Positions 1,004 to 31,574 of a stretch of DNA of 39,436 nucleotides are shown piece by piece. The notes under the pieces are model-generated. The model did no database searches, had not been told where the DNA came from, and worked only from the letters and a program-made list of their open reading frames with translations. Every line of letters starts with the position of its first letter. Within the stretch, counting starts at the first letter, position 1. Source of the DNA: a virus (lineage: Duplodnaviria > Heunggongvirae > Uroviricota > Caudoviricetes); the IMG/VR virus record IMGVR_UViG_2537561944_000032. One strand, written 5' to 3'. Position numbers and translations under genes: made by a program.

Positions 1004-1044
1004 TGGGAAAGATAAGAATAAAATCAAAGCAATAAGCAGTGTCG

Positions 1045-1072
1045 TGAAACCACCTTCGGGTGGTTTTTTCGT
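1045..1072 (+). terminator. rho-independent terminator of the tRNA operon
   Basis: Hairpin aaaccacc-ttcg-ggtggttt followed by a T-run (ggtggttttttcg). Confidence 0.7.
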
Positions 1073-2011: not shown

Positions 2012-2152
2012 TTACTGCTTACACTGTAAGAACGCCGCAAACTCCGCTCCCCAGAAGCTCATCCGTATTTCACACAGCGAACCGCGTAGCATCCAGATGA
2101 TGAGGATTACCGTCACGCAGAACGTGATGGCTGTAAGCGATTTTTGCGACAT
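2012..2152 (-). CDS. Hok/Gef-family type I toxin-like small membrane peptide (46 aa)
   Basis: Translation MSQKSLTAITFCVTVILIIWMLRGSLCEIRMSFWGAEFAAFLQCKQ: single TM segment followed by the SLCE(I/L)R and AAF motifs shared with Hok/HokA/Gef as I recall them; GGAG RBS 8 nt upstream of ATG; stable hairpin (cgggggagcaatcccccg) immediately after the stop. Below the 60-aa ORF-track cutoff, found by manual translation. Confidence 0.6.
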   Translation of the reverse strand: MSQKSLTAITFCVTVILIIWMLRGSLCEIRMSFWGAEFAAFLQCKQ

Positions 2153-4029: not shown

Positions 4030-5279
4030 GAAATTAATGTTCTATAACAAAAACACTTATCGAAAATAGGTGTAATTTATCACTCCGGCAGCTAAAAGAT
4101 CATCTGCCACATGCACGATAATAAATCTTCCTTGCGTCATCATCTCCCTCTGTTCTTAAATCAGGTGTTGCCTGTGTGCGGAGGATTCGCGAAGTACAGT
4201 AGCCGAAATGCATGATCTTACCCATCAATGGTGAGCACGCGATAATAAGTGAGTCCCTAATTGACCACTCATGGCAATACAACTTCAACCAGCATTCATG
4301 ACCACTATCCGTGGATTAACTGTTACATAAGCAACACCTGCTCTAGGCACAAAGCGGGCTGCCAGATTGGGTCTGGCACTGTGCTGTGAGTGTGTCAGTT
4401 CTGGTTTGAGTCAATACATCTAATTTGCTCATTCTGTTTCTGCTATCCATTCCGGGATTTTTGCTTCAAGCTCAAGCTGTGTGGTAAAGCCGCTGTTATC
4501 AATGGTGTGCTCGGCTTTTGCAATAATCCAGTCCTGATTATCGATGTCACTTTTGAAGCCTGTCACCGTGCCATGCATTTCGGGATAGAGTTCTGCGCGT
4601 CCACGCGCCAGCGTGATGGAGAATGATGCGGCTCCGCGTTGTAGCTGCTGCCACTTTGCCGCCGCTGCACGTCTTGCTGCCTGCTCGTTCTGATAAGTCT
4701 TGCGTAACACAAACACGTTGCCTTCCGCACCTTCCATATAGTCACCTTCACGGCTGCTGCTTTTCTCCTTTTTCGGTTTGCGGCGTTTCACGCTGACTTT
4801 TTTCTTTTCCCGTAATTAAGATCAAGCCAGTAAGCACGTACCCCCGTATACGCTTCGCGGTCAGCAATGCGGAACTGATGGCGATCGCCACTGCTGCGCG
4901 TGATGGCGAACGATGGCAACGGCTGGCCCTGTGCGTTCACGCCACCGCCTGGCATGATGAATAACAGATTACTGCTTTTTACCGTAGTGATTGCGCCCAG
5001 CATTTCCGCCATGCGCGTAAGGAAGGACATGTCGCTTTCTTCGGTCTGGTCGGCGTGGTCGATTTCAATATCCATCAGCATTTCGCTGATTTGTGGTTTC
5101 AGACCGTACCGATGAGCGATGGCGGATACCACGCGCTCAACGGTCACATCATGCCAGGACACCTCACGTTTAACGTTAAATTCATCCCGAAAATCTGCGC
5201 TTCTGGCTGAAACAGTCAGCCTGTCCGGCGGTCCTTCGTGAGCGATTTCATCAACAATGTAAGTGCCTTTTTCTGTCAG

Positions 5280-5306
5280 TGAGGTAGCCTGAGTTTAACG
5301 GACACT
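5280..5306 (+). repeat. IS left terminal inverted repeat
   Basis: tgaggtagcctgagtttaacggacact; matches reverse complement of 6517-6543 at about 19/27 positions, including the terminal TGAGGT and the CGGACACT block. Confidence 0.7.
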
Positions 5307-5343
5307 CCTTCCTGAAATAGAATGGCATCAGAAGGAGCTAATA

Positions 5344-5646
5344 ATGAGCAGAAAAACCCAACGTTACTCTAAAGAGTTCAAAGCCGAAGCTGTCAGAACG
5401 GTTCTTGAAAATCAACTTTCGATCAGTGAAGGCGCTTCCCGATTATCTCTTCCTGAAGGCACTTTAGGACAATGGGTTACCGCCGCCAGAAAAGGGCTCG
5501 GTACTCCTGGTTCCCGCACGGTGGCTGAACTGGAATCTGAAATTCTGCAACTGCGTAAGGCGTTAAATGAAGCTCGCCTTGAGCGAGATATATTAAAAAA
5601 AGCAACAGCGTATTTTGCACAGGAGTCGCTGAAAAATACGCGTTAA
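5344..5646 (+). CDS. IS3-family transposase OrfA (HTH DNA-binding, 100 aa)
   Basis: MSRKTQRYSKEFKAEAVRTV...LERDILKKATAYFAQES; typical IS3 OrfA with leucine zipper; contains slippery A_AAA_AAA_G at 5595-5602. Confidence 0.85.
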   Translation: MSRKTQRYSKEFKAEAVRTVLENQLSISEGASRLSLPEGTLGQWVTAARKGLGTPGSRTVAELESEILQLRKALNEARLERDILKKATAYFAQESLKNTR

Positions 5647-6500
5647 TCGAACAATGGCGACAACAATTTCCCATTGAAGCGATGTGTCAGGTATTTGGTG
5701 TATCCAGGAGCGGTTATTACAACTGGGTACAGCATGAACCCTCAGACAGAAAACAAAGTGATGAGCGGCTAAAACTGGAGATTAAGGTGGCACATATCCG
5801 CACTCGCGAAACATATGGAACCCGGCGGCTCCAGACGGAGCTGGCAGAGAATGGCATCATCGTTGGTCGTGACCGACTGGCACGTCTTCGTAAGGAGCTA
5901 AGGCTACGCTGTAAGCAGAAACGCAAGTTCAGAGCGACTACGAACTCGAACCACAATCTGCCAGTTGCGCCAAATCTGCTGAACCAGACGTTCGCTCCTA
6001 CAGCACCAAATCAGGTCTGGGTGGCGGACCTGACGTATGTTGCCACACAGGAGGGATGGTTGTACCTCGCTGGCATCAAAGATGTTTATACGTGCGAAAT
6101 TGTCGGCTACGCCATGGGAGAGCGCATGACAAAAGAGCTGACAGGTAAAGCTCTGTTTATGGCGCTCAGGAGCCAGCGCCCACCTGCCGGGCTAATCCAC
6201 CACTCTGATCGAGGTTCACAGTACTGCGCATACGATTACCGGGTCATACAGGAGCAGTTTGGTCTGAAAACATCAATGTCGCGTAAAGGTAACTGTTACG
6301 ACAACGCTCCGATGGAAAGCTTCTGGGGAACGCTGAAAAATGAGAGCCTGAGCCACTATCGTTTTAATAACCGGGATGAAGCCATCTCAGTAATACGGGA
6401 ATACATTGAGATTTTCTACAATCGTCAGCGTCGTCACTCTCGTCTGGGGAATATCTCCCCGGCAGCCTTCAGGGAAAAATATCATCAGATGGCTGCTTAA
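5595..6500 (+). CDS. IS3-family transposase OrfB (DDE integrase domain), expressed as OrfAB fusion by -1 frameshift
   Basis: Frame -1 relative to orfA is open from 5583; reads KKSNSVFCTGVAEKYALIEQWRQQFPIEAMCQVFGVSRSGYY... with DDE catalytic core (HSDRGSQY...NAPMESFWGTLK); start coordinate given at the slip site. Confidence 0.8.
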   Translation, partial: KKSNSVFCTGVAEKYALIEQWRQQFPIEAMCQVFGVSRSGYYNWVQHEPSDRKQSDERLKLEIKVAHIRTRETYGTRRLQTELAENGIIVGRDRLARLRKELRLRCKQKRKFRATTNSNHNLPVAPNLLNQTFAPTAPNQVWVADLTYVATQEGWLYLAGIKDVYTCEIVGYAMGERMTKELTGKALFMALRSQRPPAGLIHHSDRGSQYCAYDYRVIQEQFGLKTSMSRKGNCYDNAPMESFWGTLKNESLSHYRFNNRDEAISVIREYIEIFYNRQRRHSRLGNISPAAFREKYHQMAA

Positions 6501-6516
6501 AAAAAGAACAAATGGT

Positions 6517-6543
6517 AGTGTCCGCTATTGCCAGTACACCTCA
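6517..6543 (+). repeat. IS right terminal inverted repeat
   Basis: agtgtccgctattgccagtacacctca; terminal CA; its last three bases create the TGA stop that truncates the gpD N-terminal fragment. Confidence 0.7.
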
Positions 6544-6952
6544 CAGCGGTTCTCCTTTCCAGCCAATGAGAACCGTCAGGCGCGCGCCCCGTGGCGGTAG
6601 CTGCAACTGACCATCCGCATCATCCAGCGTGATGGTGAGCAGGTCCGCTTCAAATCCCCGGTTGTCGGTCAGTGACAGGCTCATCAGGCGCTCTGCCACG
6701 CCGGACAGTGTTTCCCCCTCCGCGAGAATATCAAAATCCGGCATTTTCACGGGGTCTGTGCTCTGACTGAGCAATTGCATGGTGGTATCGGTCATCTGTT
6801 CCCTCCCTGTGCGGCATGGTCGCATGTGCGTGCATAGGGGGTTACTGCTTTTTGTTGTCGCCGTGGCGGGAGAACGGCGCAGGGGTGAGATTACGCGCGT
6901 GGTGGGTGATGATTGTTGCCGAATCATTTAACGGATACAAGGGGCTGAAGCT

Positions 6953-9210: not shown

Positions 9211-12027
9211 ATGCAGACAATGAAGACTCTTGATATCCGGGTCGCTTTCAGCGCCGTTGACAGGCTGACCCGGCCTGCCGAAAACGCCCGCCGCCTGATG
9301 GGGCAGTTTGGTGACTCCATCCAGCGAACGCAGGGGGCGATTAAAAATCTCGAGCGTCAGGCTCGTTCATTTGAGCGCGCCCGCGACGCTGTCAGTAAAG
9401 CGGATGCGGGTATCGTGAAAGCACGACGCCAGCTTAACGCCCTTAATCAGTTACAACGCACGGGTACAGTGCTCAGCGAAAAACAACAAAAGCTGATGCA
9501 GCAGTTAAGCACCCGGCTTGAACGCCTGAATGAATCGCGCACACGGGAAATTCAGAAAATGCGGGAGCTTGGCGGAGAGCTGAAACGCCACGGCATTTCC
9601 CTGACAGGCAGCGATAACACCATCCAGCAGGCCATCAGACGCACCGAACAGTACAACAACCAGCTTGAACGCGAACGGCAGGCGCTTGCGCGTGTAACGC
9701 GGGCGCGTAAGTGGTATTCGCGCGCGCAGGAAACCGCGGGAAAACTGAAAACAGGTGGTGCGCTGGCAATTGGTGCGGCAGCGGCGGGCGGCTATGCTGC
9801 CGGGCGTTTTTTGCAGCCCGCGATCGGGTTCGGCAAAGAGATGTCCCGCGTTCAGGCGCTGACGCGAATCGACCAGAACAGCCCGCAGTTTAAGGCGCTG
9901 CGTGAGCAGGCGTTAAAACTTGGCTCTGAAACGCAGTTCACCGCAGGCGATGCCGCCAGTGGGCAGGCATTTCTTGCAATGGCAGGCTTCACACCGCAGG
10001 CCATTCAGGCTGCGCTTCCCGGAGTGCTGAGCATGGCAACGGCTGGCGGTATGGATCTCGGCGAGACGGCGGATATTGGCTCAAATATCCTGACGCAGTT
10101 CGGCCTTTCTGCTGACCAGATGGACCGGGTCGGTGACACACTCACCGCAGCGTTTACCCGTACCAACACTGACCTTCGCGCACTGGGCGAAACCATGAAA
10201 TATGCAGGTCCGGTGGCGGGTAAGCTGGGAATATCGCTGGAGCAGGCCGCAGCGATGGCTGGTGTGCTGGCGAATATGGGCATCAGAGGGAGTGATGCCG
10301 GGACGGCAATGCGTGCCAGCCTGGCTCGTCTGGCATCACCGCCAAAGGCGGCGGCAGAAGCTCTGAAAGAGCTGGGCGTGTCCGTCTCGGATGCCGGGGG
10401 TAAAATGCGCCCGATGGAGGATGTGCTGGCCGACCTTTATAAAGCCACCCGCAAATACGGGGAAGTTGACCGGGTATCGTTCTTTAAGGACATTGCCGGA
10501 GAAGAGGCTTTCACATCGTTTATGGCGCTCGTTGATGCAGTGGGTGACGGTTCCTTACCCAAACTGAGAAAAGAACTTGAAGGCGCGCGCGGTGAGGCTG
10601 AACGCACAGCAAAGGTTATGGCCAACAACCTTGACGGCGATCTGAAATCACTCGGCAGTGCATGGGAAGGGTTGCGCATCCGCATTGCAGATCTGATTGA
10701 CGGTCCGCTGCGTTCTGTCACGCAGTGGCTCACGCGGGTGGTATCAAGGGTGACGGCGCTGGCGCAGGCCCATCCGGCACTGACGCGCCAGCTACTGATA
10801 GCAGGCGGTGCGTTGCTGGCAATGACTGCAACGGTTGGCTCGTTGTCGCTGGCTATTGGTGTGCTTGCTGGTCCGCTGGCAAAACTGCGTCTTGGTTTTT
10901 CTCTCCTGACCGGATCAATGAATGCTGTCAGGGTCCTGCCAGCACTATGGGGAATGGTGACGGGTTCCGTTTCTTTACTGGGAGGCGCTATCGGGGCGCT
11001 GTTCAGTCCGGTTGGTCTTATCGTGGCTGCGCTTGCCGGAGCTGCCGTCCTTATCTGGAAATACTGGGATCCCATCAGGGCATTTTTTGCCGGGGTGTTC
11101 AGCGGGATTATGGAAAGGCTGAACCCGTTGCGTGAAACCTTTGAACGGTTTGGCCCTGTTTTTGACGCAATCGGAAGCGGGATCAGCCAGGTGTTTAACT
11201 GGTTTAAATCGCTGCTGTCACCGATGGAGTCCAGCAAGGAAACGTTGGATAAATGTACCAGTGCTGGCGAGATATTCGGTAACGTTCTTGGCGGTGCGTT
11301 ACAACTTGTTCTGACACCTGCAAAAATGCTACTGGATACGCTGGCGTGGATACTTGAAAAACTTGGCGTCCTTCCGGATGAAGCGGAAAGGGCGCGCAAG
11401 AAAATCGAAGACGCACAGCGTGCGGCCATTCTTCAGGATAAGGTTGCCTTACTTCAGGGGGACCTGGCGAAAATCAATCCGCCGAAGCCTGTGGAAAATG
11501 GCAATGGCACCGGAGGTGATAAACCCAAAGACAACAAACCGCTCACAGACAGCAATACCGGGACGCTACGCAGACTCAGCAAAATTGCTGATAACACAGG
11601 TAAGCTGGTTGATGAGACGAAAAAACGCATTGGCCCCGGCGATATTGTCTTTAAGAACCTGCCCCGCGCACTTGCTGTTCGTGGGGAGTGGCAGGAGCGG
11701 AAGATTGCGCAGGTCAGTAAGCCTGCCCCCGCAATTAATATCACACCCGTAGTCCCGGCTCCGCTGCCTCCGGCGCTGGTCCCTGTTGTTGCGGCCAGCT
11801 CCCGCCCGGTGGCGGAGGCCATACGATCGCCAGTGGCATCAGTTCCTGCAGCTTCCCGTAATCGGGAGCCTGCTGTCTCCAGATTTGGCGGTGAAATTCA
11901 TGTTCATCTGCATAACGTTGTTACGCAGAATCCCCGCGAACTGGCGAAACTGGTCGGTGAAATGGTCAGGGCAGAAATGGAACGGCGCGCCCGTGCCGGG
12001 CGTGGCAGTTTTTACGATAAAGATTGA
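9211..12027 (+). CDS. T: tail tape measure protein (P2 gpT-like)
   Basis: About 940-aa protein with extended coiled-coil N-terminal half and Gly/Ala-rich hydrophobic segments; position between E' and U. Start ambiguous (ATG 9211 or 9220; ORF opens at 9184). Confidence 0.85.
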   Translation: MQTMKTLDIRVAFSAVDRLTRPAENARRLMGQFGDSIQRTQGAIKNLERQARSFERARDAVSKADAGIVKARRQLNALNQLQRTGTVLSEKQQKLMQQLSTRLERLNESRTREIQKMRELGGELKRHGISLTGSDNTIQQAIRRTEQYNNQLERERQALARVTRARKWYSRAQETAGKLKTGGALAIGAAAAGGYAAGRFLQPAIGFGKEMSRVQALTRIDQNSPQFKALREQALKLGSETQFTAGDAASGQAFLAMAGFTPQAIQAALPGVLSMATAGGMDLGETADIGSNILTQFGLSADQMDRVGDTLTAAFTRTNTDLRALGETMKYAGPVAGKLGISLEQAAAMAGVLANMGIRGSDAGTAMRASLARLASPPKAAAEALKELGVSVSDAGGKMRPMEDVLADLYKATRKYGEVDRVSFFKDIAGEEAFTSFMALVDAVGDGSLPKLRKELEGARGEAERTAKVMANNLDGDLKSLGSAWEGLRIRIADLIDGPLRSVTQWLTRVVSRVTALAQAHPALTRQLLIAGGALLAMTATVGSLSLAIGVLAGPLAKLRLGFSLLTGSMNAVRVLPALWGMVTGSVSLLGGAIGALFSPVGLIVAALAGAAVLIWKYWDPIRAFFAGVFSGIMERLNPLRETFERFGPVFDAIGSGISQVFNWFKSLLSPMESSKETLDKCTSAGEIFGNVLGGALQLVLTPAKMLLDTLAWILEKLGVLPDEAERARKKIEDAQRAAILQDKVALLQGDLAKINPPKPVENGNGTGGDKPKDNKPLTDSNTGTLRRLSKIADNTGKLVDETKKRIGPGDIVFKNLPRALAVRGEWQERKIAQVSKPAPAINITPVVPAPLPPALVPVVAASSRPVAEAIRSPVASVPAASRNREPAVSRFGGEIHVHLHNVVTQNPRELAKLVGEMVRAEMERRARAGRGSFYDKD

Positions 12028-12684: not shown

Positions 12685-13257
12685 GTGCTGTCTTACTTAA
12701 TGGCAATTCACTTTGCTTTATTTGGGGACTCTACTAATTTAAAAAACTTCTGGAAATATGAAGTAATTCGGCGGAAACGTATGGATATCTGGAGGCTTTT
12801 AAGAGAGAAAAAACAGCGTAACCGGAATTTCCTTTTCTGGTGGCGGTTGGCTAACGAAATGTATATTAATGGTAATAAATTACATAAGAAAGCAGCCAAA
12901 AAGTTAAACAGTAAAATAATTAACAAATTTGGTTGTGAAATTGGATTGGGCGCAAATATTGGAAAAGGGTTAACAATTCCCCATCATGCTGGAATTGTTG
13001 TTCATTTTGCTGTTGATGCTGGTGAAAATCTGGTGTTACGACAGAATACTACCATTGGACAGATAGATGGTGACATGCCTGGTTCAAGAGTAAAAATTGG
13101 TAGTAACGTTGATATCGGAGCTAATTGTTGCATCATTGGATTATCACGTAAAATTGGGGATAATGTAAAAATAGGTGCAATGTCTTTTATAAATAAAGAT
13201 ATACCATCGAACTGCACATATATAACTAAAAAGAGCGGTGTTGTATTGTATAAATAG
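12685..13257 (+). CDS. hexapeptide-repeat (left-handed beta-helix) acetyltransferase, CysE/LacA/WcaB-like; cargo gene
   Basis: Repeated [LIV]-G-x-x-x-x-I hexapeptide units (IGKGLTIPHHAGIVV...VKIGSNVDIGANCCIIG...KIGDNVKIGAMSF); GTG start at 12685 with AAGGAG RBS (ATG at 12700 alternative); region 12570-13260 is strongly AT-rich; followed by hairpin terminator. Confidence 0.75.
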   Translation: MLSYLMAIHFALFGDSTNLKNFWKYEVIRRKRMDIWRLLREKKQRNRNFLFWWRLANEMYINGNKLHKKAAKKLNSKIINKFGCEIGLGANIGKGLTIPHHAGIVVHFAVDAGENLVLRQNTTIGQIDGDMPGSRVKIGSNVDIGANCCIIGLSRKIGDNVKIGAMSFINKDIPSNCTYITKKSGVVLYK

Positions 13258-13879: not shown

Positions 13880-16011
13880 TATGCAAGCCTCACAATATAG
13901 TTAAATGCGATGTTTTTTACGGTGTTTTCTTCGTTACCCGTAGCGTTAACGGTGATGGTGTGTCCGTGGGGACCAATAATGACAGAATGGGCATGAGCAC
14001 CAATGCCGATAGTGTGGTTATGGGCACCGATATATACATTGTGAGCATGCTCGCCTGCGCTCGACGTGGTACCAGTACCTAACGCAGCGTTATAACCGGC
14101 TGATACACCATTCCCCGCGCCAGTGTGACCAACAGGTATATTGTGTGAATGATTTCCAGCGCTATTCGTAGTTTTTGTGCCGTAATCAAATGAACTGGTC
14201 GTTTTAGTACCGTAATCAAACGACGATGTGGTTTTCGTCCCCAAATCCGTACTGGATGCGCTGGCGCTGTGGGTGTGCGATTTAATGCCGTCCTGTTCCT
14301 GAGACAATACGGCACGACCACTGCCGGGCTTGCCCTTAATCGTCCAGCCACGCATATCAGGAATAACGCCTGACGGATAAGCGACTGCAAGTTTCGGGTA
14401 TGCAGATTTGTCAAAAGTCTGCCCCTGCATCAGGGCATAACCAGACGGAACGGTATCTGATGGCCACGGAATCGGTGCACCGACTGGATAAAACTCTTCA
14501 GGAGGATGAGCCGAGGTGTAAAGCTGCGCCCACGGCGACCAGTTTGCGTCGGGCGTATCCCGTCGTGAACGAATAAATGCCGGAGCATGAGCACCGCTTA
14601 TACCACTCCAGCCGATGAGTAATTCGCCTTCGCCAACGGCTGTCATCCCTTTCAGGTGAATGATATTTCCATACGTTGTTGGATATCCGTTGTTATACGC
14701 CTCGTATAACTCCAGACCTGTGGCCCCCTGCATATTATCTGTCAGGGCGGTCAGCCGACCTTTTGAAGCCAGATTAACTGACGATACTGCTGTCCCATCT
14801 GACGGTAACGCCCCGATCTCTGATGCTGTTGGCTTATTCCTGGAGTTATAGTCCCTTCGCCAGCCAGGAGCATAAGCATCACCATGATTAATATAAGTAA
14901 ATTGAGCATTAGGGATGCCTTCACCGCTGGATGTACTCGGTGTGGTAATGCGTATGGTCATTGCGCCGCGGGTGCCAATAACTTCCACAACAGCACCTGC
15001 AAGACAAATACTTCCGCAACCTGTATCTGTAATGACCTTATTATTTGCATAAGCCCATGAGCCTTTGCACATCCAGTAAGGATGGTTAAATGCCCCCTGA
15101 CTCTCTAGCCAAAAAATCAACTGCGCAGTTGTCCATGCTTCACTATCTCCACCAATATTCAGCTCTGCACTATATGCACGGCAGGCACCGATATTTTTCG
15201 TAAAGGTGTCTTTATCAGAGATATCCTCACCATTCTTAGCTTTCTGCAGACGTTTTTCAGCATTGTCATAGGCAGCTTTTACTGCATTTGATGTTGCCGC
15301 CAGCGTTTCAGATGTACTGTTGGTTGCACTACTAAGCTGGACAAGGCCTTTTCGCGCTGTTGTGGCATCCTGCGCTGTATATTTTCCGTTAGCAAGATCA
15401 TACGCGACCTTAACCGCTTTCGGCGTTGCAGCCAGCGTTTCAGAATCGCTGTTAGTGGCGCTACTGAGTTGAACAAAGCCTTTTGCGGTCAGCGAGGCAT
15501 CCGGGTGACATCGTGACTGTTCATGCTCTTTCAGTTCGTTATCCACGTAATCCACTGTGGCCATCACCATGGTGTTATCCACGGTAAGCGCCACAGTGGC
15601 AGTGCTGGATACGGTCAGAATGGTGCGAAATGTTTGTGCACGTCCGGACCCTTCGGCAACGGCTGGCTTGTAACTTTCGGCAGTATTGCCCACCGCGATT
15701 AAATCGCCGTGCTCATCAAACACACCAATTTCCCGGATCCAGAATCCGCCCGTTTCTGGAGGAATAACCAGCTCCGCAATAATGCGGTTCTGATGTGTTG
15801 CGTCCAGGATGACGCGATTAACAGTGTGTCGCCACACCTCATGCACCAGACGGGTCTGCTTACTGTCTGGTGTGGGCAACGCGCCGCCACCGTCGCCCAC
15901 GGCCATATGAGTCAGGCGGACAGGCTTACCATCTGGCGCGGCTGCCTGAGCTAATTTTTTGGCACCTGTATCGGTGATAACGGTTTTAAATTTTCGTGTT
16001 GTGGTACTCAT
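13879..16011 (-). CDS. H: tail fiber protein (P2 gpH-like) with divergent His-rich C-terminal receptor-binding tip
   Basis: N-terminal two-thirds match P2 gpH as I recall it, including the duplicated [23 protein letters not shown] segment; C-terminus carries HxH repeats ([33 protein letters not shown]). Confidence 0.9.
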
Positions 16012-16013
16012 GC

Positions 16014-16544
16014 TTAATCGTCCGGATAAATGGTAATAACTTCACCGTCATGAGTTGCCGCCGCTGCAAAAATATCCCCCGGAATTTCCTGAATGATATT
16101 CAGCCCTGTCATGTGGCGGCTGACCGGACGGGCATCAGCAATCAACCGCTCCATTTCCAGATACATTTCCTCCGTCACGCCACTGTCCAGTGTGCCGACT
16201 TCAACGGTAAATGTTCCCGGTTCTCCGCCGAACTCCCACCACTCAGACACGCGAATGAGGTATCCCAGCGGCTCAATGGCCCTGCGCAGTGCGCTGATGG
16301 TCCCTTTGTGTCGGTGTATCAGCCATGCATCACGAATCACCTGTCGTTTTGTCTCTTCCGGCCAGTTGCGATCCCAGCGGTCAACGGAAAATGCCCAGGC
16401 GAGATAAGGCAGCAGGTGCACCGGGCAGGTGTCCGGCGACCACAGCGTGTTGAGGTCTACCGGGATGTCTGTAATGCGCGTTCCGACAGCTTCGGCACAA
16501 CGCATGAAACTGCTGGCTGATGGTGGTAACAGTGAATTACTCAT
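16014..16544 (-). CDS. I: baseplate assembly protein gpI-like
   Basis: Position between J and H; about 176 aa from Met at 16544 (MSNSLLPP...), P2 gpI size. Confidence 0.8.
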
Positions 16545-18365: not shown

Positions 18366-19006
18366 CGTACAGCCTCCGCAATCCGGCCCAGCACCGTGTT
18401 ATAAATCAGGCGTTCATCTGCCTGACTGATGCCCAACAGCTCACGTACCGGGTAATCGGTGAAAATGCCCGGCGCAACCTGATCGCGCTCACCGAACTGA
18501 TGAACGCGGGCAATACGTGCGGCCACGCCGCTGTAACCCACCGTCACACCGGAAGCATCTGCACGGGCTTTCAGGTAGCGGGCGGTGCGCAGTTTTACGA
18601 ACATGGGGACGCGCTTTGTGCTGTCCTGGTTGATGCGCCGGGTGCGTATTTCCAGAAAGCGGTCGATGTCATCCCGGTAAAACGTGCGGATATTGTTTTT
18701 ATCCTCATCCCACCCGGTAATGGTTCGCCCGTATTTCCCCGTGTCGTGATGCCAGTTTTTCAGCGTGCGTGCTTCGTTATTCCAGATAAAGCGAATGCGC
18801 TCCTGTATCCGGGTTACGCGGCGTCTGCGTGGTGTCCACGCGGTCCCGTCCGGCGCTTTCTGTGACCGGATACGCGCCTGCTGGGCGCGGCGTAAATCCT
18901 GTGCCAGCTTTCTGGCGATGTTATTGATGGCCTGCTGATTCAGGCTGTCGCGGATAGCCTCAAAGGTTTCATCCACGCGGGTGAATGCCTTATCCATCGC
19001 TTTCAC
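18362..19006 (-). CDS. S: tail completion / virion morphogenesis protein gpS-like
   Basis: Basic 214-aa ORF between R and V in conserved P2 order. Confidence 0.7.
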   Translation of the reverse strand: MKAMDKAFTRVDETFEAIRDSLNQQAINNIARKLAQDLRRAQQARIRSQKAPDGTAWTPRRRRVTRIQERIRFIWNNEARTLKNWHHDTGKYGRTITGWDEDKNNIRTFYRDDIDRFLEIRTRRINQDSTKRVPMFVKLRTARYLKARADASGVTVGYSGVAARIARVHQFGERDQVAPGIFTDYPVRELLGISQADERLIYNTVLGRIAEAVR

Positions 19007-19457
19007 CCCACGTCACATCCTGGAATACATGCGACCAGTCGCCTTCGGAAGATGGCAGACGGGGTTTTGGCTCCTGCAGGTGTTCTGCCTGCGGTGCCCC
19101 CTGACTGCTGCGCGTGATGCGAACGCGTTCCCGCAGAGGGAGCGTAAACAGGAGATCGGCGCTGTCATCGTCATTGATAACGGCGGAGAATTTGATGTCC
19201 TGATTACGCTCCGGATTAAGCAACAATTGCGGCTGATTTTCGGATAACCACGCCAGTAGCGGCAGCGTGAGGTCGTCCAGCTCCCCGGCGTAATCCATGA
19301 CAAACATCACCATCTGATAGCGGTAAACAAACGAGGGCGTTTCTCCGGTCGTTTCAATGTTGCCGCTCTCCACGAAAATGGTGAATTTTTCCGGGTTGGC
19401 CTGACACCAGCGACACCCATGAATCATGCCCTTCCGGAGGCTGTTTGTCTTAAGCAT
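18990..19457 (-). CDS. R: tail completion protein gpR-like
   Basis: 155 aa from Met at 19457 (MLKTNSLRKG...), AGGAG RBS; resembles P2 gpR N-terminus (MLKPDSLRR...) and LAWL.ENQP motif. Confidence 0.8.
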   Translation of the reverse strand: MLKTNSLRKGMIHGCRWCQANPEKFTIFVESGNIETTGETPSFVYRYQMVMFVMDYAGELDDLTLPLLAWLSENQPQLLLNPERNQDIKFSAVINDDDSADLLFTLPLRERVRITRSSQGAPQAEHLQEPKPRLPSSEGDWSHVFQDVTWGESDG

Positions 19458-19480
19458 CTGTTTTGCTCTCCTGTTCATCC

Positions 19481-21358
19481 TTACGCTGCAGGACTATTTA
19501 TTTCCAGCACCAGACTTTCTATCTCAACGCCATACGTTGCATTTTTGGTAATATCCGTCAGCGTCAGTGCATTCAGCCCCAGTGTCAGACTGTCTTTTAT
19601 GACCTGGAATGCCGGGCCAGCCACTCCATTCAGTTTCGGAGTAACCGTGGCACTGCTGGCGGTGAACACCAGCTCCAGCGTCTGCCAGTCGTTACTGTAA
19701 TTCCCGAACTCGCCCAACTTTGTGTTTCCTGCTTTCTTGTGATGCATCAGATTCAGTTTGCCGTCTGTGGTCTGGGTGAAGAACGACATCAGGAACGGGT
19801 TACCAGTCCCGGTCATCGCCACGACGTCAGGTAACGCTACATCGGTATACAGATAAATTCCCAGACCGAACTGATTGTTGGTCAGTGCGCCTGACAGGCG
19901 GAACTTACAGGTCAGTCTGCCGCCCTGTGTCAGCAGGGTAATTGCGTCATCCACCGGATGCGTCAGGGACCAGGTTTTATTGCTCTGCTTGGTGATCTTA
20001 AATACACCATCTGACAACTGAATTCCGCCATCCTTAATGCTCCAGCCCTGCGCAGCAGCCTCTCCGGCTGCCGGCAGCAGGGAGATTGTGCGAACGGACG
20101 TATCTGCAGACGGACCCGATGGCGTGTTGCCGCCGGGCGAGGGTTTGATTTCCGGTGCCTTACCACTGATGAAGGCTAAGGTGCGACCGGCTACGTTCAG
20201 AATAGCGGTTGCCATACGATCCGGAATAATGCTCCTGCGCGCCCATGAACTGAAATGCGTCTGGCGATTTGATGATACCCAGTTTTTGTTCGTTCGGGAT
20301 GCCGAACCGTAATATCCCTCACTTGCAGCATCCGGATCTTCCGTTGGTGCGTTGGTGGAGGTATTGTTGCCACTACCATCGGTCAGGAATGGCACAAAGA
20401 AAACGTTGTCGCTCTCCCTGTTTTTGTACGCCCCGTAAATGGTGTCGTACTGCGTGCCGTAGGTGTTTTTCCAGTAATACGTCGTGTCACCACAAATCCA
20501 TGGCACACTTGCCGCTCTGCCTCCATGACACTGCGTGTTAAACTCGGTAATGTCCGCACGAAACTGTTTCAGCATGGCCGCAAACAGCGGAGGTTGCTGT
20601 GAGTACGTAGCGGCGCTCATGTCAAATTCGCCCTGCATCCAGCATACGGCCAGCAGCATGTTTTTTGGGTTTTTCTGCAATGCGGCCTTCGTGCGCAAAA
20701 TCAGGTCCTGATATAAAGGTTTACCCACACCCCAGCGAGCCGAATCCTGACTGGCTCCTGTGGACTCGCTGAATGTCCCCTCCGCGCCCTGGGTGAATGC
20801 CGAACCACCACGACAGCATGGAACCAGTAAAATCCCGGCATTCTGTGGAATGTAAGGCAACAGGCGTTTGGCAATATGCAAGCCCTGTCCGACACAGCCA
20901 TACTGCCCTTTGCTCAGGTCTGCATTCGGGTGATTCAGTACGCTCATATCCTGAACATCATGCAGGCAGTGATCTGCCGGAATGATGTCGTTAAATGCGC
21001 ATGCTTTACCACCGGGAGTCACTGTGTTGCGACGGGCCAGTTGCTTAATGCGTGGGTGGGGCGCATCGTAAGAATCCGGCAGCGGCATTCCCTCACCATA
21101 TGACATGGCATTGGATTGACCAGCAAGTACCACCACGTAATACCACTCCGGCACGCTGCCGTGCTGGGGGGAATCAGGTGAGATGTCTGTAGTGCCATCG
21201 GCCACCATTGCCTGCATTAGATACCACGGGGTGCCGGGTTCGTAGGCAACCCGCGTCTCCCCCTGAAGATGCCACCCTTTCGCAAGATGTTCATTCACCT
21301 TTTGAGTCAGTTCAGCCTGTGTCATGGCTGTAATCAGTGCAAAGTTCTTACTGGTCAT
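19481..21358 (-). CDS. prophage NanS-p-like protein: N-terminal DUF1737 + SGNH-hydrolase/sialate O-acetylesterase-like domain + C-terminal beta-rich domain (625 aa); cargo gene
   Basis: N-terminus MTSKNFALITAMTQAELTQKVNEHLAKGW resembles DUF1737; VVLAGQSNAMSYG contains the GQSN motif of the DUF303/SASA esterase family; inserted between lysC and R, which are adjacent in P2. Confidence 0.7.
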   Translation of the reverse strand: MTSKNFALITAMTQAELTQKVNEHLAKGWHLQGETRVAYEPGTPWYLMQAMVADGTTDISPDSPQHGSVPEWYYVVVLAGQSNAMSYGEGMPLPDSYDAPHPRIKQLARRNTVTPGGKACAFNDIIPADHCLHDVQDMSVLNHPNADLSKGQYGCVGQGLHIAKRLLPYIPQNAGILLVPCCRGGSAFTQGAEGTFSESTGASQDSARWGVGKPLYQDLILRTKAALQKNPKNMLLAVCWMQGEFDMSAATYSQQPPLFAAMLKQFRADITEFNTQCHGGRAASVPWICGDTTYYWKNTYGTQYDTIYGAYKNRESDNVFFVPFLTDGSGNNTSTNAPTEDPDAASEGYYGSASRTNKNWVSSNRQTHFSSWARRSIIPDRMATAILNVAGRTLAFISGKAPEIKPSPGGNTPSGPSADTSVRTISLLPAAGEAAAQGWSIKDGGIQLSDGVFKITKQSNKTWSLTHPVDDAITLLTQGGRLTCKFRLSGALTNNQFGLGIYLYTDVALPDVVAMTGTGNPFLMSFFTQTTDGKLNLMHHKKAGNTKLGEFGNYSNDWQTLELVFTASSATVTPKLNGVAGPAFQVIKDSLTLGLNALTLTDITKNATYGVEIESLVLEINSPAA

Positions 21359-21636
21359 TGTGTTACTCCCGTCTGGTGTGTCAGTTCGGCTATTCTCTTA
21401 TCCAGTTCAGCAATGGCCCGTTTATCCGCGTTACAGGTTTCCAGTGCATCCAGAAGGCGGTCGCCCCATATTCCGAGGTTTCCCCATGTGGGTTGGTCAG
21501 GGAAGGGGGGAGGCGTTACCGGCATGGTCAGCGTCTGCGGTATAAGCCGGACTGACGGCGCTGGCCGTGGCGCGTTCTGCGTGCCTGCGCAACCTGTCAG
21601 TAAAACGAGCGTCAGGCAAAGCGTGGGCGCATTCAT
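21355..21636 (-). CDS. o-spanin lipoprotein (LysC/Rz1-like)
   Basis: Met at 21636 gives MNAPTLCLTLVLLTGCAG with lipobox LLTGC; Pro-rich mature part; overlaps 3' end of i-spanin gene in another frame. Confidence 0.75.
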   Translation of the reverse strand: MNAPTLCLTLVLLTGCAGTQNAPRPAPSVRLIPQTLTMPVTPPPFPDQPTWGNLGIWGDRLLDALETCNADKRAIAELDKRIAELTHQTGVTQ

Positions 21637-21904
21637 CTTTTGCAATATCGTTGCGTAGCTGTTCACGTCTTACCTCTCCGTCCTGATTGCGTTGCTGATT
21701 GTCCGCGCGGAGTTGAGCCAGCACCTGCTGCATATCCTGTACCCCGGCGCTGATGATATTCAGTGTGTCGACGGTACTTTTCAGGGTGCTGGCCTGCGCT
21801 TCGTTTCTGGCGTTCTCCCGGCCCAGCGACCACGACAGACGCATGGATGTTCCCCATGCGGCAATCAGAAGGAAAGCGACGCCAAGCGTGGGCCAGAGCT
21901 TCAT
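21497..21904 (-). CDS. i-spanin (LysB/Rz-like)
   Basis: Met at 21904 gives N-terminal TM segment (MKLWPTLGVAFLLIAAWG) followed by coiled-coil-rich periplasmic domain; downstream of endolysin. Confidence 0.7.
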   Translation of the reverse strand: MKLWPTLGVAFLLIAAWGTSMRLSWSLGRENARNEAQASTLKSTVDTLNIISAGVQDMQQVLAQLRADNQQRNQDGEVRREQLRNDIAKDECAHALPDARFTDRLRRHAERATASAVSPAYTADADHAGNASPLP

Positions 21905-22293
21905 GCCGGATAGGCTCCGTGTGGTAACTGAAAATGCGGTCCGTCTTTCAGGGTCTTCCAGTCGCCGCCCCATTCCACCGGAATATTCAGTTCCCGGCTG
22001 GCCTGTCTGAATGCTGCTGCGATTTTTTCGTACAGCGGCCATTCCCATGACACCTGGCTGCCAACATAAGCCACAACATCCACGGCATGCCCTGTGAGAT
22101 GGCGACTGTTCATGGTCTGGCTCTTGCCTGTGGTCACGAGCTGCTTCTGACGATAACGACTGCGCAATCCTTCGGTGATACCAAAATCCACTTCCGAGAT
22201 TTCCAGCGCCCGTCGGGTCACTTTCACCAGATCAGGATTTACACCCTGCAAATTCTTTTCGCTTCGGCTGCTGAATTTAAATGTGTTGCTCAT
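21901..22293 (-). CDS. endolysin, peptidase M15-family (L-alanyl-D-glutamate peptidase-like)
   Basis: 130-aa ORF with H...D...H metal-binding pattern (SRHLTGHAVDV...GPHFQL); strong RBS AAGGAGAGGA; ATGA overlap with holin stop. Confidence 0.75.
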   Translation of the reverse strand: MSNTFKFSSRSEKNLQGVNPDLVKVTRRALEISEVDFGITEGLRSRYRQKQLVTTGKSQTMNSRHLTGHAVDVVAYVGSQVSWEWPLYEKIAAAFRQASRELNIPVEWGGDWKTLKDGPHFQLPHGAYPA

Positions 22294-22613
22294 TCGTTCC
22301 TCTCCTTCACCCTGCGATCAAATATTGCAATAACCTTGTCGCGTGCTTTCTCTGCGCCCATAAAACCGATTGAGGCACCAAAAAACGTCACTGCATCCTC
22401 AGGGATCCCGAAGAAGCGCAGCGACCCGGCCACGGCCATGGCAAGAACGCCGCACGCCAGCGATCCCGTTACGGTCTGAACCAGTGTTCGTCCGTCATAA
22501 AGACTCATCAGCGCGGAAATGCTGACAGCCGCGCCTACTGCATACACCGTTGGCAGGTGGTCAAAGAGCCACGCAATAACCTGCTCTGTGATCCCTGTTT
22601 GAATGGTGCTCAC
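22290..22613 (-). CDS. holin (P2 gpY-like position)
   Basis: GTG start at 22613 with GGGGGAG RBS; about 107 aa with hydrophobic helices; immediately upstream of endolysin. The ORF-track N-terminal extension overlaps gene X and is rejected. Confidence 0.6.
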   Translation of the reverse strand: MSTIQTGITEQVIAWLFDHLPTVYAVGAAVSISALMSLYDGRTLVQTVTGSLACGVLAMAVAGSLRFFGIPEDAVTFFGASIGFMGAEKARDKVIAIFDRRVKERNE

Positions 22614-24257: not shown

Positions 24258-25310
24258 TTAGCTGTCGGCGAACTTCAGGCCAGTGACCATCGCGCACTTG
24301 CCATAGTCTTCAACGACATAAGCGTCATTGATGGACTGGTAGGTGGCGATGCGGTTGTATTCCGGCTCGTCTTTCATCAGACGACGCATTGAACCTTTCT
24401 GCCAGTAAATCGACAGGTTGTTGAACGAGGTGATAAGCATCGTTGCATCCGGGAAGAACGGCGCAAGGAACACGCCCAGCCCGCCAATGGTGCGCGATGA
24501 CAGGATGAGCTGCCCGGCAAGTAATTCCGCATTGGGATTCTGGCCGCTGATGCTGTTCAGCACGGGCAGACGCAGCGAGTTAAACAGGTTGCGCCCCATA
24601 ATCACCACGAGGTCGTCAGCTTCCTTGTGCCATTCATCCAGCAGGGATGAGCGCGCATCCTGTACCAGAGCATCGGCATTCGCATACTTACCCGCGTGCG
24701 CCACAGTGTTGTCCATGTTGCGGGAGGTCAGCGTCACGTCATTCATTACGCGCTCGCTGGCATCGGTTCTGATGTGCTCCAGCCAGCCCACGTTAACGTC
24801 CTGAAGCAGCTTGTTGGTGTGAAAATCAGACTCGTAGGCGTGGGATGTGCCGTTAAAGCCAATCATGATGCGATCAAGCGCTACCTGCCGGGCGATCTGT
24901 GTACTGATACGGGACTGAAAATCGCTGTGGGCCGCCCAGGTATCAAGCTGTGGGTACGAAATAAAGGTATCGTAGTTCACCTGTTCGCACTGGTACTGAC
25001 GAGACTTCATATCGATCACGTTATTCGGGTTACGGCGTTTGATGCCGTCATAACTGCTATTCGTGCGCGCAATTGGCCCGGTGGTGTCCGGGAGGATTTT
25101 TTCGCCTTTCTGGTCGGTCACGCCGATCACGTTAATTCTTTTCGTAAATTCGGTACTTTCCTTTGAGGCGTTTTCAAAACGCTGCTGCACCGCGGGTTCC
25201 ACGGTAAATCGCGATACCAGTGCAGATACCGGGATATTGTTAAGCGACGCCTGCTGCGCCATATAGCAACCCAGCTTGTTGCGGGTAATATCTGACATCA
25301 CCAGATTCAT
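24258..25310 (-). CDS. N: major capsid protein gpN-like
   Basis: 350-aa ORF with clear similarity to P2 gpN as I recall it (KFTVEP...; LITSFNNLSIYWQ; YVVEDYG). Confidence 0.9.
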   Translation of the reverse strand: MNLVMSDITRNKLGCYMAQQASLNNIPVSALVSRFTVEPAVQQRFENASKESTEFTKRINVIGVTDQKGEKILPDTTGPIARTNSSYDGIKRRNPNNVIDMKSRQYQCEQVNYDTFISYPQLDTWAAHSDFQSRISTQIARQVALDRIMIGFNGTSHAYESDFHTNKLLQDVNVGWLEHIRTDASERVMNDVTLTSRNMDNTVAHAGKYANADALVQDARSSLLDEWHKEADDLVVIMGRNLFNSLRLPVLNSISGQNPNAELLAGQLILSSRTIGGLGVFLAPFFPDATMLITSFNNLSIYWQKGSMRRLMKDEPEYNRIATYQSINDAYVVEDYGKCAMVTGLKFADS

Positions 25311-30263: not shown

Positions 30264-30575
30264 TTATTCAGGAAATAACGCCCGGATATTTCCGGCCATC
30301 TGACTGGTTATCTGTGCGGTTGATACTGGCTGTGATGCGGGGCGTTCTGTCCTGGTTTGTGTCACTGATAACGCTTCATCACCAGCCCATGCAGCCAGTC
30401 GATAAGCCTCTGCCGGATTCATTTTCAGAAGTGCCAGCCCGGCCAGAAAAGCCACGCGTTGGCCGCTTTTGCGGGCTTCTGGTGTAAGGCTGTCCAGCCA
30501 GGCGCATGCTTCTCCTTCGTTCTTGACGGCGGTGGGCTTCAGATAGAAACTTATCCGTCTGGTTGGAGTCGTCAT
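30264..30575 (-). CDS. ParR/StbB-like centromere-binding adaptor (ribbon-helix-helix type)
   Basis: 103 aa from ATG 30575 (AAGGAG RBS, 2 nt after parM-like stop). RRISFYLKP...LDSLTPEARKSGQRVAFLAGLALL and C-terminal IRALFPE resemble plasmid R1 ParR as I recall it. Confidence 0.65.
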   Translation of the reverse strand: MTTPTRRISFYLKPTAVKNEGEACAWLDSLTPEARKSGQRVAFLAGLALLKMNPAEAYRLAAWAGDEALSVTQTRTERPASQPVSTAQITSQMAGNIRALFPE

Positions 30576-30579
30576 TGGT

Positions 30580-31539
30580 TTACTCCTTGTCCATTGCGTA
30601 CAGCCCATTAACCAGAGCAAACTGTGGCACCCCGTCCGCGATGAAAGTCGCATTAACTCCGCAGGCTTCGCGGATAGCGGGTGCCACAATCTCCGCCCCT
30701 CCACCGACAACCATCACCCGCCCGTAACCCGAAAAACCCGCCAGCGCGCGGATCACGCGTTGTTTCAGTGTTTCTTCCTTTTCACGAATAACCGCCATCA
30801 GGCTGGCGTAATGCGCGTCATTGTGGATGTGCTGGCGCAGCCAGGCTTCATCATGGCGATGTTCGATAATGGTATTGGCGATGTGGTGACTGGTGCGCAT
30901 ACCGTTAGTGGCCATCACCGACAGTACGGCATCGGCCATCAGAGAAACGCCCACGTGTGGATCGCAAAACACCTGGCTGATACCTGCCAGTTGCCCCTGA
31001 ACCTTTGCCACATCCAGAGTGGTTCCGCCCAAATCCACAATCAGCAGGGATTCAAACGGACTCATGTCAGCCAGTGCCTTAAAGCCAGCCGGAATGGATT
31101 CAGGCATAACCCGTACGTTACGGATAGTGAATGCTTCGCCGTTCTGGTACTCCACCGGGCGCATGACGTTCGCTTTTTTGCGGTTGATGTTGGCCATGTC
31201 CGGCTGTGCGTTTGTATCGAAATACTCGCTCAGTGGCAGGGTGACAACCACATCCACTTCCTGTGGTGTGATGCCTGATTTGACCAGCGCGTGATGAATG
31301 GCAATTATATTCACATCGCTGTACTGGTATTGCGTGTCGGTCGTCTGGACAAAGCGATCGCTGACCGGATCAAAACCATAGCGCACGCCATCAAGCATGT
31401 AGTTCGCGGGCTGCGTGCCACCGAACGGCGCAGACCATTCCGACTTGAAGCTGTTCGGGCTGATGGCGTTGCGGCGTTCGCCGTTCTCAGTCCATGCCAG
31501 CTTGATGTTGGTGGAGCCGTCGTCGATACAAATTTTCAT
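30580..31539 (-). CDS. ParM/StbA-like actin-family ATPase
   Basis: N-terminus MKICIDDGSTNIKLAW...ISPNSFKSEW...QYSDVNIIAIHHALVKSG closely parallels plasmid R1 ParM (FIDDGSTNIKLQW...ISPNSFKREW...QYSDVNVVAVHHALL) as I recall it; also the adjacent-Gly phosphate-binding loop DLGGTT. Confidence 0.8.
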   Translation of the reverse strand: MKICIDDGSTNIKLAWTENGERRNAISPNSFKSEWSAPFGGTQPANYMLDGVRYGFDPVSDRFVQTTDTQYQYSDVNIIAIHHALVKSGITPQEVDVVVTLPLSEYFDTNAQPDMANINRKKANVMRPVEYQNGEAFTIRNVRVMPESIPAGFKALADMSPFESLLIVDLGGTTLDVAKVQGQLAGISQVFCDPHVGVSLMADAVLSVMATNGMRTSHHIANTIIEHRHDEAWLRQHIHNDAHYASLMAVIREKEETLKQRVIRALAGFSGYGRVMVVGGGAEIVAPAIREACGVNATFIADGVPQFALVNGLYAMDKE

Positions 31540-31574
31540 GTCGCTTTTCCTTGTGTTGATTAATTAATCGGTTA

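Follow-up and report, generated by a model that had tools for sequence, protein, structure and literature searches.

A gene for a probable NanS-p-like sialate O-acetylesterase between the lysis genes and tail gene R of a P88-like prophage

NanS-p esterases are regarded as fitness and virulence factors of enterohaemorrhagic Escherichia coli (EHEC) that unlock the O-acetylated sialic acids of mucin. They have so far been discussed as cargo of lambdoid prophages, both Shiga toxin (Stx) and non-Stx, and the presence of nanS-p in non-Stx prophages is stated by several papers. Here we describe a nanS-p-like gene in the late operon of a P2-family prophage, at positions 19481..21358 (minus strand) of a viral DNA stretch of 39,436 nucleotides (IMG/VR record IMGVR_UViG_2537561944_000032), the whole of which we call the window. 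We consider it very probable that this gene is cargo of a P88-like prophage that encodes a sialate O-acetylesterase, expressed with the late operon, released by lysis and possibly tethered to the capsid.

Experimentally characterised NanS-p proteins are known from Stx2a podoviruses (933W z1466/L0105; phi24B gp84, which is vb_24B_21). They are esterases of 5-N-acetyl-9-O-acetylneuraminic acid (Neu5,9Ac2) and of mucin and are induced with the late genes, as described for z1466, and all seven EDL933 proteins and all five O104:H4 proteins that were tested are active and support growth on Neu5,9Ac2 (PMC8065619). The podoviral proteins share the architecture of the window protein at an overall identity of about 48%. 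The lambda-like NanS-p proteins (CPT_434_71 of phage 434, yjhS of JLK-2012, and those of Stx1a phages such as YYZ-2008) have the same three domains and are also encoded in the late region next to lysis genes, but their N-terminal domain lacks a four-residue EPG(T/V) loop that is inserted in the P2-type domain of the window protein. Their genes lie upstream of the holin, after Q/stx and with terminators around them, whereas the window gene follows lysC and forms part of the operon; the lambdoid carrier is a lambda-head siphovirus and the window carrier a P2-type myovirus. Chromosomal NanS (YjhS; PDB 3PT5) has a homologous catalytic domain whose SGNH blocks show the same variants, GQSN and R-x-x-H among them, but it is a single-domain protein of about 326 amino acids (aa) that belongs to the nan regulon, is not phage-borne and has neither a DUF1737 domain nor a jelly-roll.

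The family is well known, as are its activity and its carriage by prophages, and the gene itself is annotated in hundreds of genomes. We found no mention of a P2-like nanS-p carrier in the literature searched. Relative to that literature, its carriage by P2-family prophages, at a conserved position flanked by the LysB/LysC genes and R, appears to be undescribed, as do a P2-specific subtype of DUF1737 and a pattern, seen in P2-like, lambda-like and Mu-like phages and in a tail-fibre fusion, in which the anchor stays while the payload swaps.

The protein and its place in the late operon

The 625-aa product is a genuine three-domain member of the NanS-p family, with a SASA fold homologous to NanS, SGNH blocks that include the serine and the histidine, a DUF1737 domain, a jelly-roll and a lysis-adjacent slot in the late region. 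Domains were searched with Pfam above gathering thresholds, PHROGs, NCBIfam, a PDB sequence match, an AlphaFold2 (AF2) model and Foldseek. Pfam places DUF1737 (PF08410) at aa 4-53 (28.8 bits, cut-off 24), a SASA carbohydrate esterase at aa 75-271 (E=2e-11) and DUF6645 at aa 476-586 (E=3e-19). Its match to phrog_143 (function 'unknown') extends over the full length at 1075 bits, no NCBIfam model matches, and RefSeq labels the gene 'DUF6645 domain-containing protein'. Residues 69-388 align to E. coli NanS/YjhS (3PT5) over 320 residues with E=6e-124, and residues 430-622 to the crystallised C-terminal domain of phi24B NanS-p (6YP6) with E=3e-31. Foldseek superposes the AF2 model on 3PT5 with a template modelling (TM) score of 0.77 and 57% identity and on 6YP6 with a TM score of 0.84 and a root-mean-square deviation of 2.1 Å; after 6YP6 the ranking continues with lectin folds, one of them the sialic-acid-binding domain of V. 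cholerae sialidase. The open reading frame (ORF), Pfam, PHROGs and AF2 all agree with the original prediction, made from the sequence of the window, of a DUF1737 N-terminus, a GQSN esterase and a beta-rich C-terminal domain in one protein.

All domain coordinates are on the minus strand. The N-terminal DUF1737 domain (aa 1-54; 21197..21358) is of a P2-lineage subtype with the anchor-loop signature YEPGTPWYLMQA; it is modelled as beta-alpha-beta-beta-beta, with a helix on an antiparallel sheet, an aromatic loop at W45/Y46 and the DISPDSP linker following. This first interdomain linker (aa 55-70; 21149..21196; GTTDISPDSPQHGSVP) is rich in Ser, Pro and Asp and has a predicted local distance difference test score (pLDDT) below 50 for aa 56-67. 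The NanS-type SGNH/SASA esterase domain, supported by the 3PT5 alignment, covers aa 71-390 (20189..21148), and is separated by a second, Pro/Ser-rich and disordered linker (aa 391-430; 20069..20188; pLDDT below 50 for aa 398-421) from the C-terminal lectin-like jelly-roll (DUF6645; aa 431-625; 19484..20068), a putative carbohydrate-binding module. Three of the four aromatic residues of the proposed phi24B carbohydrate site are still aromatic here (F497, Y502, F527), and the C-terminal third of the model is almost entirely beta-strand. Mean pLDDT is 73, with 80-88 in the N-domain and about 85-90 in the C-domain, and both linkers are disordered; the full-length model is of moderate quality, its esterase loops are of low confidence, and it was left out of considerations of active-site geometry. 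The protein has no secretion signal, and aa 5-11 are a strand of the folded N-domain in the model.

Ser82 (codon 21113-21115) lies in GQSN (aa 80-83) and His368 (codon 20255-20257) in RQTH (aa 365-368), both on the minus strand, and further SGNH-type blocks are CCRGGS (aa 181-186) and WMQGEFD (aa 240-246). Across 71 aligned homologues S82, G184, G243, E244, D246, R365 and H368 are invariant. We name the catalytic residues from reviews and the alignment; the offsets of the 3PT5 alignment fit the pair Ser19/His301, reportedly the one given by Rangarajan 2011. The last block is R-x-x-H and not D-x-x-H, so that an arginine takes the place of the canonical triad aspartate. NanS and NanS-p are known to share the same variant blocks, the last of them being RSSH, RASH or RPTH (Pascal et al. 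2023). Because the NanS family has no D-x-x-H block, the search for a Ser-His-Asp triad that the original prediction proposed is to be read as one for Ser and His: these two are conserved, while the aspartate is not.

A reading of the protein as a tail-associated depolymerase was rejected, as Pfam finds no tail-fibre or tailspike anchoring domain in it, in keeping with the original preference for an esterase. The choice between an esterase and a structural component is, in our view, a false dichotomy, since the phi24B orthologue combines esterase activity with decoration of the capsid.

The gene is an intact, ATG-initiated ORF of 625 aa plus stop in a late operon of the order O-N-M-L-X-holin-endolysin-lysB/lysC-[nanS-p]-R-S, with all the genes placed here on the minus strand. 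Its upstream neighbours by Pfam, PHROGs and RefSeq are the genes for head completion protein gpL, X, holin (22290-22613), M15 endolysin (21901-22293), LysB (DUF2570; 21497-21904) and LysC, an Rz1-like o-spanin (21355..21543; Pfam LysC). Downstream are tail completion gene R (18990..19457; P2_Phage_GpR, E=1e-37) and the gene for gpS, followed by V, W, J and I. The P2-type major capsid protein (MCP) gpN, of the PF05125 family, is annotated by RefSeq at 24258..25310.

P88 and most sequenced P88-like phages match this region in two pieces and have no gene between lysC and R. Blastn of the window against P88 loses homology at 19415 and regains it at 21411, and the base-level junctions define a cassette (19416..21410) in which 1,995 bp stand in place of 93 bp of P88. 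An insertion between the lysis cassette and R, where P2 has no gene, had been proposed, and these junctions place it. The breakpoints are intragenic, and the cassette includes ~17 codons from the end of lysC and ~14 from the start of R, both in a diverged version. Because it supplies the 3' end of lysC and the 5' end of R itself, the cassette was swapped between P2-like phages by homologous recombination; it reached the P88-like backbone from another P2-like phage and not as a fresh lambdoid insertion.

Within the cassette the packing is tight. The lysC stop and the start codon of nanS-p share an ATGA, with GGGAG in front of the ATG; the gap from the end of nanS-p to the ATG of R is 23 nt, and R is served by a Shine-Dalgarno sequence of its own (AGGAG) inside the cassette. 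Consensus scans, by which promoters and terminators were sought, found no credible nanS-p promoter, the single 9/12 match overlapping the start codon and falling below shuffle expectation, and no minus-strand terminator between nanS-p and R. With no promoter or terminator of its own, an overlap with lysC and a gap of 23 nt to R, nanS-p is an integral cistron of the late operon and not a self-contained moron, and we abandon the latter term, which had been applied to it. In P2, Ogr activates the late operon, which starts at O and continues past the lysis genes to R and S, and nanS-p would by its position belong to the Ogr-activated operon here.

From this arrangement and from the characterised relatives, a course of events can be proposed. 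Upon induction, Ogr would switch on the late operon and NanS-p would be made alongside the head, lysis and tail-completion proteins, its transcription occurring only with the Ogr-dependent late genes. As the protein has no secretion signal, it would enter the gut lumen once the cell is lysed by the products of the adjacent upstream holin, endolysin and spanin genes. The enzyme would then be free, or else bound to heads and later shed through cleavage of a linker. Directed to glycans by its jelly-roll domain, it would remove 7/8/9-O-acetyl groups from mucin sialic acids as the characterised NanS-p enzymes do, and the de-O-acetylated sialic acids would become usable by sialidases and sister lysogens, to the benefit of the lysogens that survive.

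To count occupied slots we used a 331-bp probe made of the cassette-specific lysC end and the N-domain, which has no lambdoid cross-match, and required at least 80% coverage. The cassette is present in 376 of 5,426 complete E. coli genomes, or about 7%, and the empty P88-type junction in 688, so that about one-third of P88-type lysC/R junctions are filled. Carriers include O26:H11, O111:H11, the O104:H4 outbreak strain HUSEC2011, and isolates of cattle, dolphin and frog; the P2-family allele is thus found in O26:H11 EHEC and in the O104:H4 outbreak lineage. The HUSEC2011 cassette is P88-like, and the O104:H4 protein from the P88-like prophage is WP_000202135.1, which may be one of the five O104:H4 alleles that were assayed. 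Three phage records also contain the cassette (PV468777, with O25b:H4-ST131 as its listed host, ON470599 and ON470623), and in each it is cut off at the record end. A scan of species-representative genomes gave five loci, comprising Escherichia and single-domain NanS-like matches in Proteus and a Bacillota metagenome-assembled genome.

These counts bear on the possibility that nanS-p is a decaying or inactive passenger, a remnant of recombination with no current function in P2-like prophages. The window prophage is already damaged by an insertion sequence (IS) in tail gene D, and fragments occur among many database entries, as this explanation would expect. Those fragments are mostly truncations at contig ends, however, and RefSeq annotations hold an intact ORF of 625/626 aa in unrelated lineages such as O26, O104:H4 and O111:H11, with the cassette segment in hundreds of complete genomes and every catalytic-block residue conserved. 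The pseudogene reading was rejected on the intact ORF and the catalytic blocks, and we regard a functionless passenger as highly improbable.

A shared enzyme body and an N-terminal domain that follows the phage lineage

Identity to lambdoid NanS-p changes sharply along the protein. Compared with 434 and JLK-2012 it is 29-30% in the N-domain and 14-21% in the first linker, and then 85-86% in the esterase, 97.5% in the second linker and 92% in the C-domain; the corresponding values for phi24B gp84 are 21%, 29%, 67%, 32.5% and 38.5%. The first halves of the 434 and phi24B N-domains are very similar to each other. The 85-97% identity of the esterase, linker and C-terminal parts to lambdoid alleles (434, JLK-2012 and Stx1a phages), together with the 3PT5 and 6YP6 matches, bears out the original claim that this architecture is one known from lambdoid prophages.

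Sliding-window nucleotide comparisons of three P88-borne alleles (the window, L014 from O104:H4, and L016) show the same boundary. In the first 150 nt all three are equally far from lambdoid genes, at 50-53% identity. Among themselves, the window and L014 are 97-100% identical across the first ~450 nt, and the identity of L016 to the window is 91% up to nt 150 and 70-77% across the 300 nt that follow. Beyond the N-terminal part, each P88-borne allele is its own patchwork, with blocks 96-100% identical to particular lambdoid alleles. In protein terms, the O104:H4 and window N-domains are 100% identical and their bodies 85-91%. Two other proteins with a P2-type anchor show how far bodies travel: that of P0016 is nearer to lambdoid alleles (95.6%) than to other P2-type alleles, and that of P0097 is 83% identical to lambdoid alleles, while P0097 is 52-53% identical overall to the window protein. 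The Mu-like allele P0112 has a body 87-89% identical to lambdoid alleles.

Body identities of 85-97% and nucleotide blocks of 96-100% indicate that exchange between phage families is real and recent. As judged from these alignments, the enzyme body circulates among phage families repeatedly and recently, and the N-terminal module encoded by the first ~70 codons does not. Because bodies are traded between P2-borne and lambdoid alleles, the exchangeable nanS-p pool spans unrelated phage families. The transfer between families that the original prediction suggested thus holds for the enzyme body, which has been exchanged with lambdoids, but not for the N-domain, which is P2-specific and sits in a cassette derived from a P2-like phage.

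A shared nanS-p gene also offers homology for recombination between P2-like and lambdoid prophages, of which one locus may be an example. In L013 (IMGVR_UViG_2529292998_000004; nanS-p at 10001-11878), P88-like head and lysis genes lie upstream of nanS-p, and downstream lie lambdoid holin, endolysin and Rz genes and a lambda-type terminase and portal, in a flank 99.7% identical to that of lambdoid L018. This locus is either a real P2-like/lambdoid hybrid formed through the shared nanS-p body or an assembly chimera at the repeat.

We typed the N-terminus and the flanking phage markers at the window and at 88 loci from public contigs and genomes. The P2-type N-terminus, with the signature (S/Y)EPG(V/T)P(W/F)YLMQA, is accompanied by P2 genes (gpN, gpO, gpL, LysB and others) at 14 of 14 loci, and by gpR and gpS wherever the contig reaches; homologues of gpN with 61-100% identity lie beside 13 of the 14, the short contig L015 stopping before gpN. 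No P2 marker is found at the approximately 75 loci with a 434-type N-terminus, where the markers in range are a lambdoid S21-type holin, endolysin, Rz and Q. The P2-type domain is 21-30% identical to the phi24B, 434 and JLK-2012 domains (about 52% at the nucleotide level for 434 and JLK-2012) and 51-59% identical to the NanS-p N-termini of three diverged P2-like phages (L007-L009). In these phages gpN is 61-63% identical and has a Pfam Phage_cap_P2 match, the endolysin is of a lysozyme family and not M15, and NanS-p, 52-55% identical overall to the window protein, occupies the same slot after LysB/LysC and before R. Among the loci typed, the P2-type DUF1737 subtype appears specific to P2-like phages and always in the lysC/R slot.

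Searches with the N-domain alone gave a similarly narrow picture. Tblastn against 50,697 phage records returned three P88-like records and nothing else, and a word-seeded protein search returned near-identical fragments only, so that neither search brought up distant or stand-alone relatives of the domain; it was the full-length search that recovered the diverged P2-type members P0070, P0071 and P0097. A small DUF1378 ORF of 50-60 aa lies 3' of nanS-p in the three diverged P2-like phages (L007 12046-12213, L008 11300-11467, L009 12105-12257) and in L095 (12235-12417), and reportedly also in Stx phages; it is missing from the window's cassette. In L008, an IS200/IS605-type element (TnpB/OrfB and Y1 transposase TnpA; 14471-16160) lies in the baseplate J gene.

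Beyond DUF1737, we observe the same body behind other N-termini. In P0112, a protein of a Mu-like prophage (L095 10001-12070; L096 8319-10388), the esterase and DUF6645 follow an N-domain of about 119 aa that has no Pfam match; the gene comes after a gin-type invertase and is followed by small DUF1378 and DUF826 ORFs, in a prophage that abuts a type VI secretion system cluster. In P0093 (L097 1015-3768), a protein of 917 aa, a tail-fibre N-terminus (PF08400) replaces DUF1737 before SASA and DUF6645, and the gene directly follows a tail-fibre assembly gene at the prophage end. P0093 looks like a tail-mounted version of the same enzyme.

The fusion in P0093, beside a tail-fibre assembly gene, is in a position typical of receptor-modifying enzymes, and it brings up the idea that NanS-p is carried on the virion to de-O-acetylate O-antigen, capsule or other bacterial glycans, aiding phage adsorption or release, and does not act on mucin. 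The hexapeptide-repeat acetyltransferase moron of the window prophage (described below) would suit such a role, which has also been raised as a possibility in a review of Stx phages (PMC8065619). Against it, the catalytic domain is about 57-65% identical to NanS, characterised relatives are sialate-specific, the C-domain resembles sialic-acid-binding and lectin modules, and the window protein, as noted, has no tail-fibre or spike domain. We also know of no need for de-O-acetylation of the O26 or O104 O-antigens in adsorption by P2-like phages. On balance we consider bacterial receptor modification improbable.

Soluble cargo or capsid-borne enzyme: two possible readings

In phi24B, the NanS-p protein gp84 is abundant in the virion. 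Its DUF1737 hexamer, with Tyr42 as the anchor, plugs the pore of face-centre hexons in a T=9 capsid, and the enzyme is proposed to be clipped off later at Ser/Pro-rich linkers (preprint 10.64898/2026.04.10.717836). The first linker of the window protein aligns with the proposed gp84 cleavage region (SISSP). Tyr42 is not positionally conserved, but W45/Y46 lie nearby in the corresponding loop, and the modelled fold of the N-domain is compatible with gp84-like docking. The shells differ, phi24B having an MCP of PF13252 and the window phage P2 gpN, which we regard as the candidate docking partner of the N-terminal domain. Hexamers of gpN can accept external decoration, as they do with Psu of P4, although Psu binds as a dimer and only on small P4 capsids. 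A lineage-specific capsid adaptor would explain why the N-domain stays with its phage while the body is exchanged. It is conceivable on these grounds that NanS-p is tethered, at least transiently, to gpN hexons in P88-like phages, and we put this forward tentatively, as something that may well not hold.

A more general form of this idea would make NanS-p a modular family of virion-displayed, mucin-modifying proteins, in which one freely exchanged esterase-plus-lectin payload is mounted on lineage-specific N-terminal adaptors: DUF1737 subtypes for the heads of lambda-like phages, Sepvirinae and P2-like phages, with the P2-type domain on gpN hexons, the ~119-aa domain in Mu-like phages, and a tail-fibre N-terminus. 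We think this generalisation rather unlikely as it stands. If it were true, particles of P88-like myoviruses would carry a sialate O-acetylesterase on their T=7 capsid, as the first decoration protein of a full-size P2-type capsid, and one that could steer phage behaviour in mucus. Conditional on docking of DUF1737 to gpN, the protein would resemble T4 Hoc, T5 pb10 and P4 Psu as a hexon-centred decoration that shows a glycan-directed module, but none of the three has sequence or fold kinship to it, and Hoc and pb10 are non-enzymatic. In any case, the lineage-specific N-domain yields a testable prediction about DUF1737 docking on capsids of different geometry.

The heads found at lambdoid loci speak to how closely anchor and capsid are matched. 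A lambda-type terminase, portal, gpD and gpE occur at 24 loci with the 434-type anchor and head genes in range (23 viral or genomic contigs and PhiR5_1), and no phi24B-type head gene is found at these 24. In Stx2c_2409 and Stx1a_PV02105 the anchor is of the 434 type but head markers of the lambda and phi24B types are lacking, and the head of Stx2c_2409 is of the HK97 type, with a protease-MCP fusion. A strict rule that each DUF1737 subtype belongs to one MCP family was rejected for lambdoids on the strength of Stx2c_2409, with Stx1a_PV02105 likewise off-pattern.

Several points weigh against our account of the protein, and most of them against capsid tethering, its weakest step. Identity between the N-domain and its phi24B counterpart is only 21%. 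The shell of P2 is T=7 and has vertex-adjacent hexons only. In phi24B, gp84 avoids the curved hexons next to the vertices (10.64898/2026.04.10.717836). One lambdoid DUF1737 subtype occurs with two MCP families, the lambda gpE type and the HK97-type fusion. The confinement of the P2-type N-domain to one lineage may also be neutral: recombination cannot cross a segment of 52% identity, and an N-domain too diverged to recombine would leave crossovers to the conserved esterase core. For the window copy, with tail gene D interrupted by an IS, any virion-linked role of nanS-p is moot. As to the enzyme itself, the fourth aromatic of the proposed phi24B carbohydrate site is replaced by L593, and we infer esterase activity and late expression from homologues and from the gene arrangement.

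Some of these observations would also fit with NanS-p as a soluble, metabolic 'public good', released at lysis for sister lysogens and never bound to the virion, its P2-specific N-domain having no capsid role and owing its restriction to linkage and sequence divergence. NanS-p has classically been viewed in this way, on the grounds that lysogens grow on Neu5,9Ac2 and that recombinant enzymes are active. The pairing of one lambdoid subtype with two MCP families agrees with it, as does the position of the recombination blocks, which end where nucleotide identity drops to ~52%, as expected from homology dependence alone. The gene has also stayed intact in the window prophage although gene D carries an IS. 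A purely soluble enzyme sits less well with gp84, which is abundant in virions and whose DUF1737 is resolved on the capsid (10.64898/2026.04.10.717836), and with the pattern among relatives, where P2-like, lambda-like, Mu-like and tail-fibre-fused proteins have the body in common and the N-module always differs by phage type. The upkeep of an intact but functionless N-domain in all relatives would be hard to explain, and alleles with 10-15% divergence in the body still have P2-type N-domains that are 100% identical. We hold the chance of a soluble enzyme that is never virion-bound to be close to even. The broader reading that we prefer, of a late-operon, lysis-released esterase that is possibly tethered to the capsid, leaves room for a free enzyme as well as a head-bound one.

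The source prophage and its other genes

A 2.5-kb query across nanS-p is 100% identical to many EHEC genomes, among them O26:H11 strain 11368. Strain 11368 has a prophage with 99.97% identity to the whole window, a 1,264-bp IS3-family insertion being the sole difference; this prophage adjoins a tRNA-Gly/Cys/Leu cluster at one end and host yecA at the other. The backbone is P88-like (Xuanwuvirus, Peduoviridae), and both flanks of nanS-p are 96-97% identical to phage P88 at the nucleotide level. A 121-bp segment at window 949-1069 overlaps the 3' part of a tRNA-Leu (917-1003) and has an exact second copy past the integrase end in 11368 (L003 40347-40467); this repeat is presumably the att duplication that bounds the prophage.

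The IS3-family element, absent from the 11368 prophage, lies at 5280-6543 and contains orfA (HTH_Tnp_1; 5344-5646) and orfB (rve integrase core; 5682-6500). It starts TGAGGTAGCC and finishes ACACCTCA, with a 3-bp target duplication, CAG. The element splits tail gene D into 4429-5279 and 6544-6795 (minus strand), and the window's copy of the prophage is probably unable to assemble tails or complete virions. Cassette-bearing P88-like prophages with gene D intact include those of O26:H11 11368 and O104:H4 C227-11phi-cu.

Between tail gene U and the tail-fibre assembly gene, a lone plus-strand gene (12685-13257) encodes a 190-aa hexapeptide-repeat acetyltransferase, which RefSeq calls 'serine O-acetyltransferase' and Pfam matches weakly to Hexapep. 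It lies in a low-GC island (0.38-0.42, against 0.53-0.60 in most flanking structural genes) and looks like a classical moron, a curious one given the O-acetylesterase in the same prophage. A ParM segregation ATPase and a 'plasmid partitioning/stability' protein are encoded in the early region (L003 31067-32342, or on the minus strand at about window 30266-31541), pointing to an ability of this integrated P88-like prophage to be maintained like a plasmid. At the end opposite the integrase, RefSeq annotates a Hok/Gef toxin (about window 2012-2152) and a 379-aa 'YecA family protein' (about 2890-4029), while host yecA flanks the integrase end.

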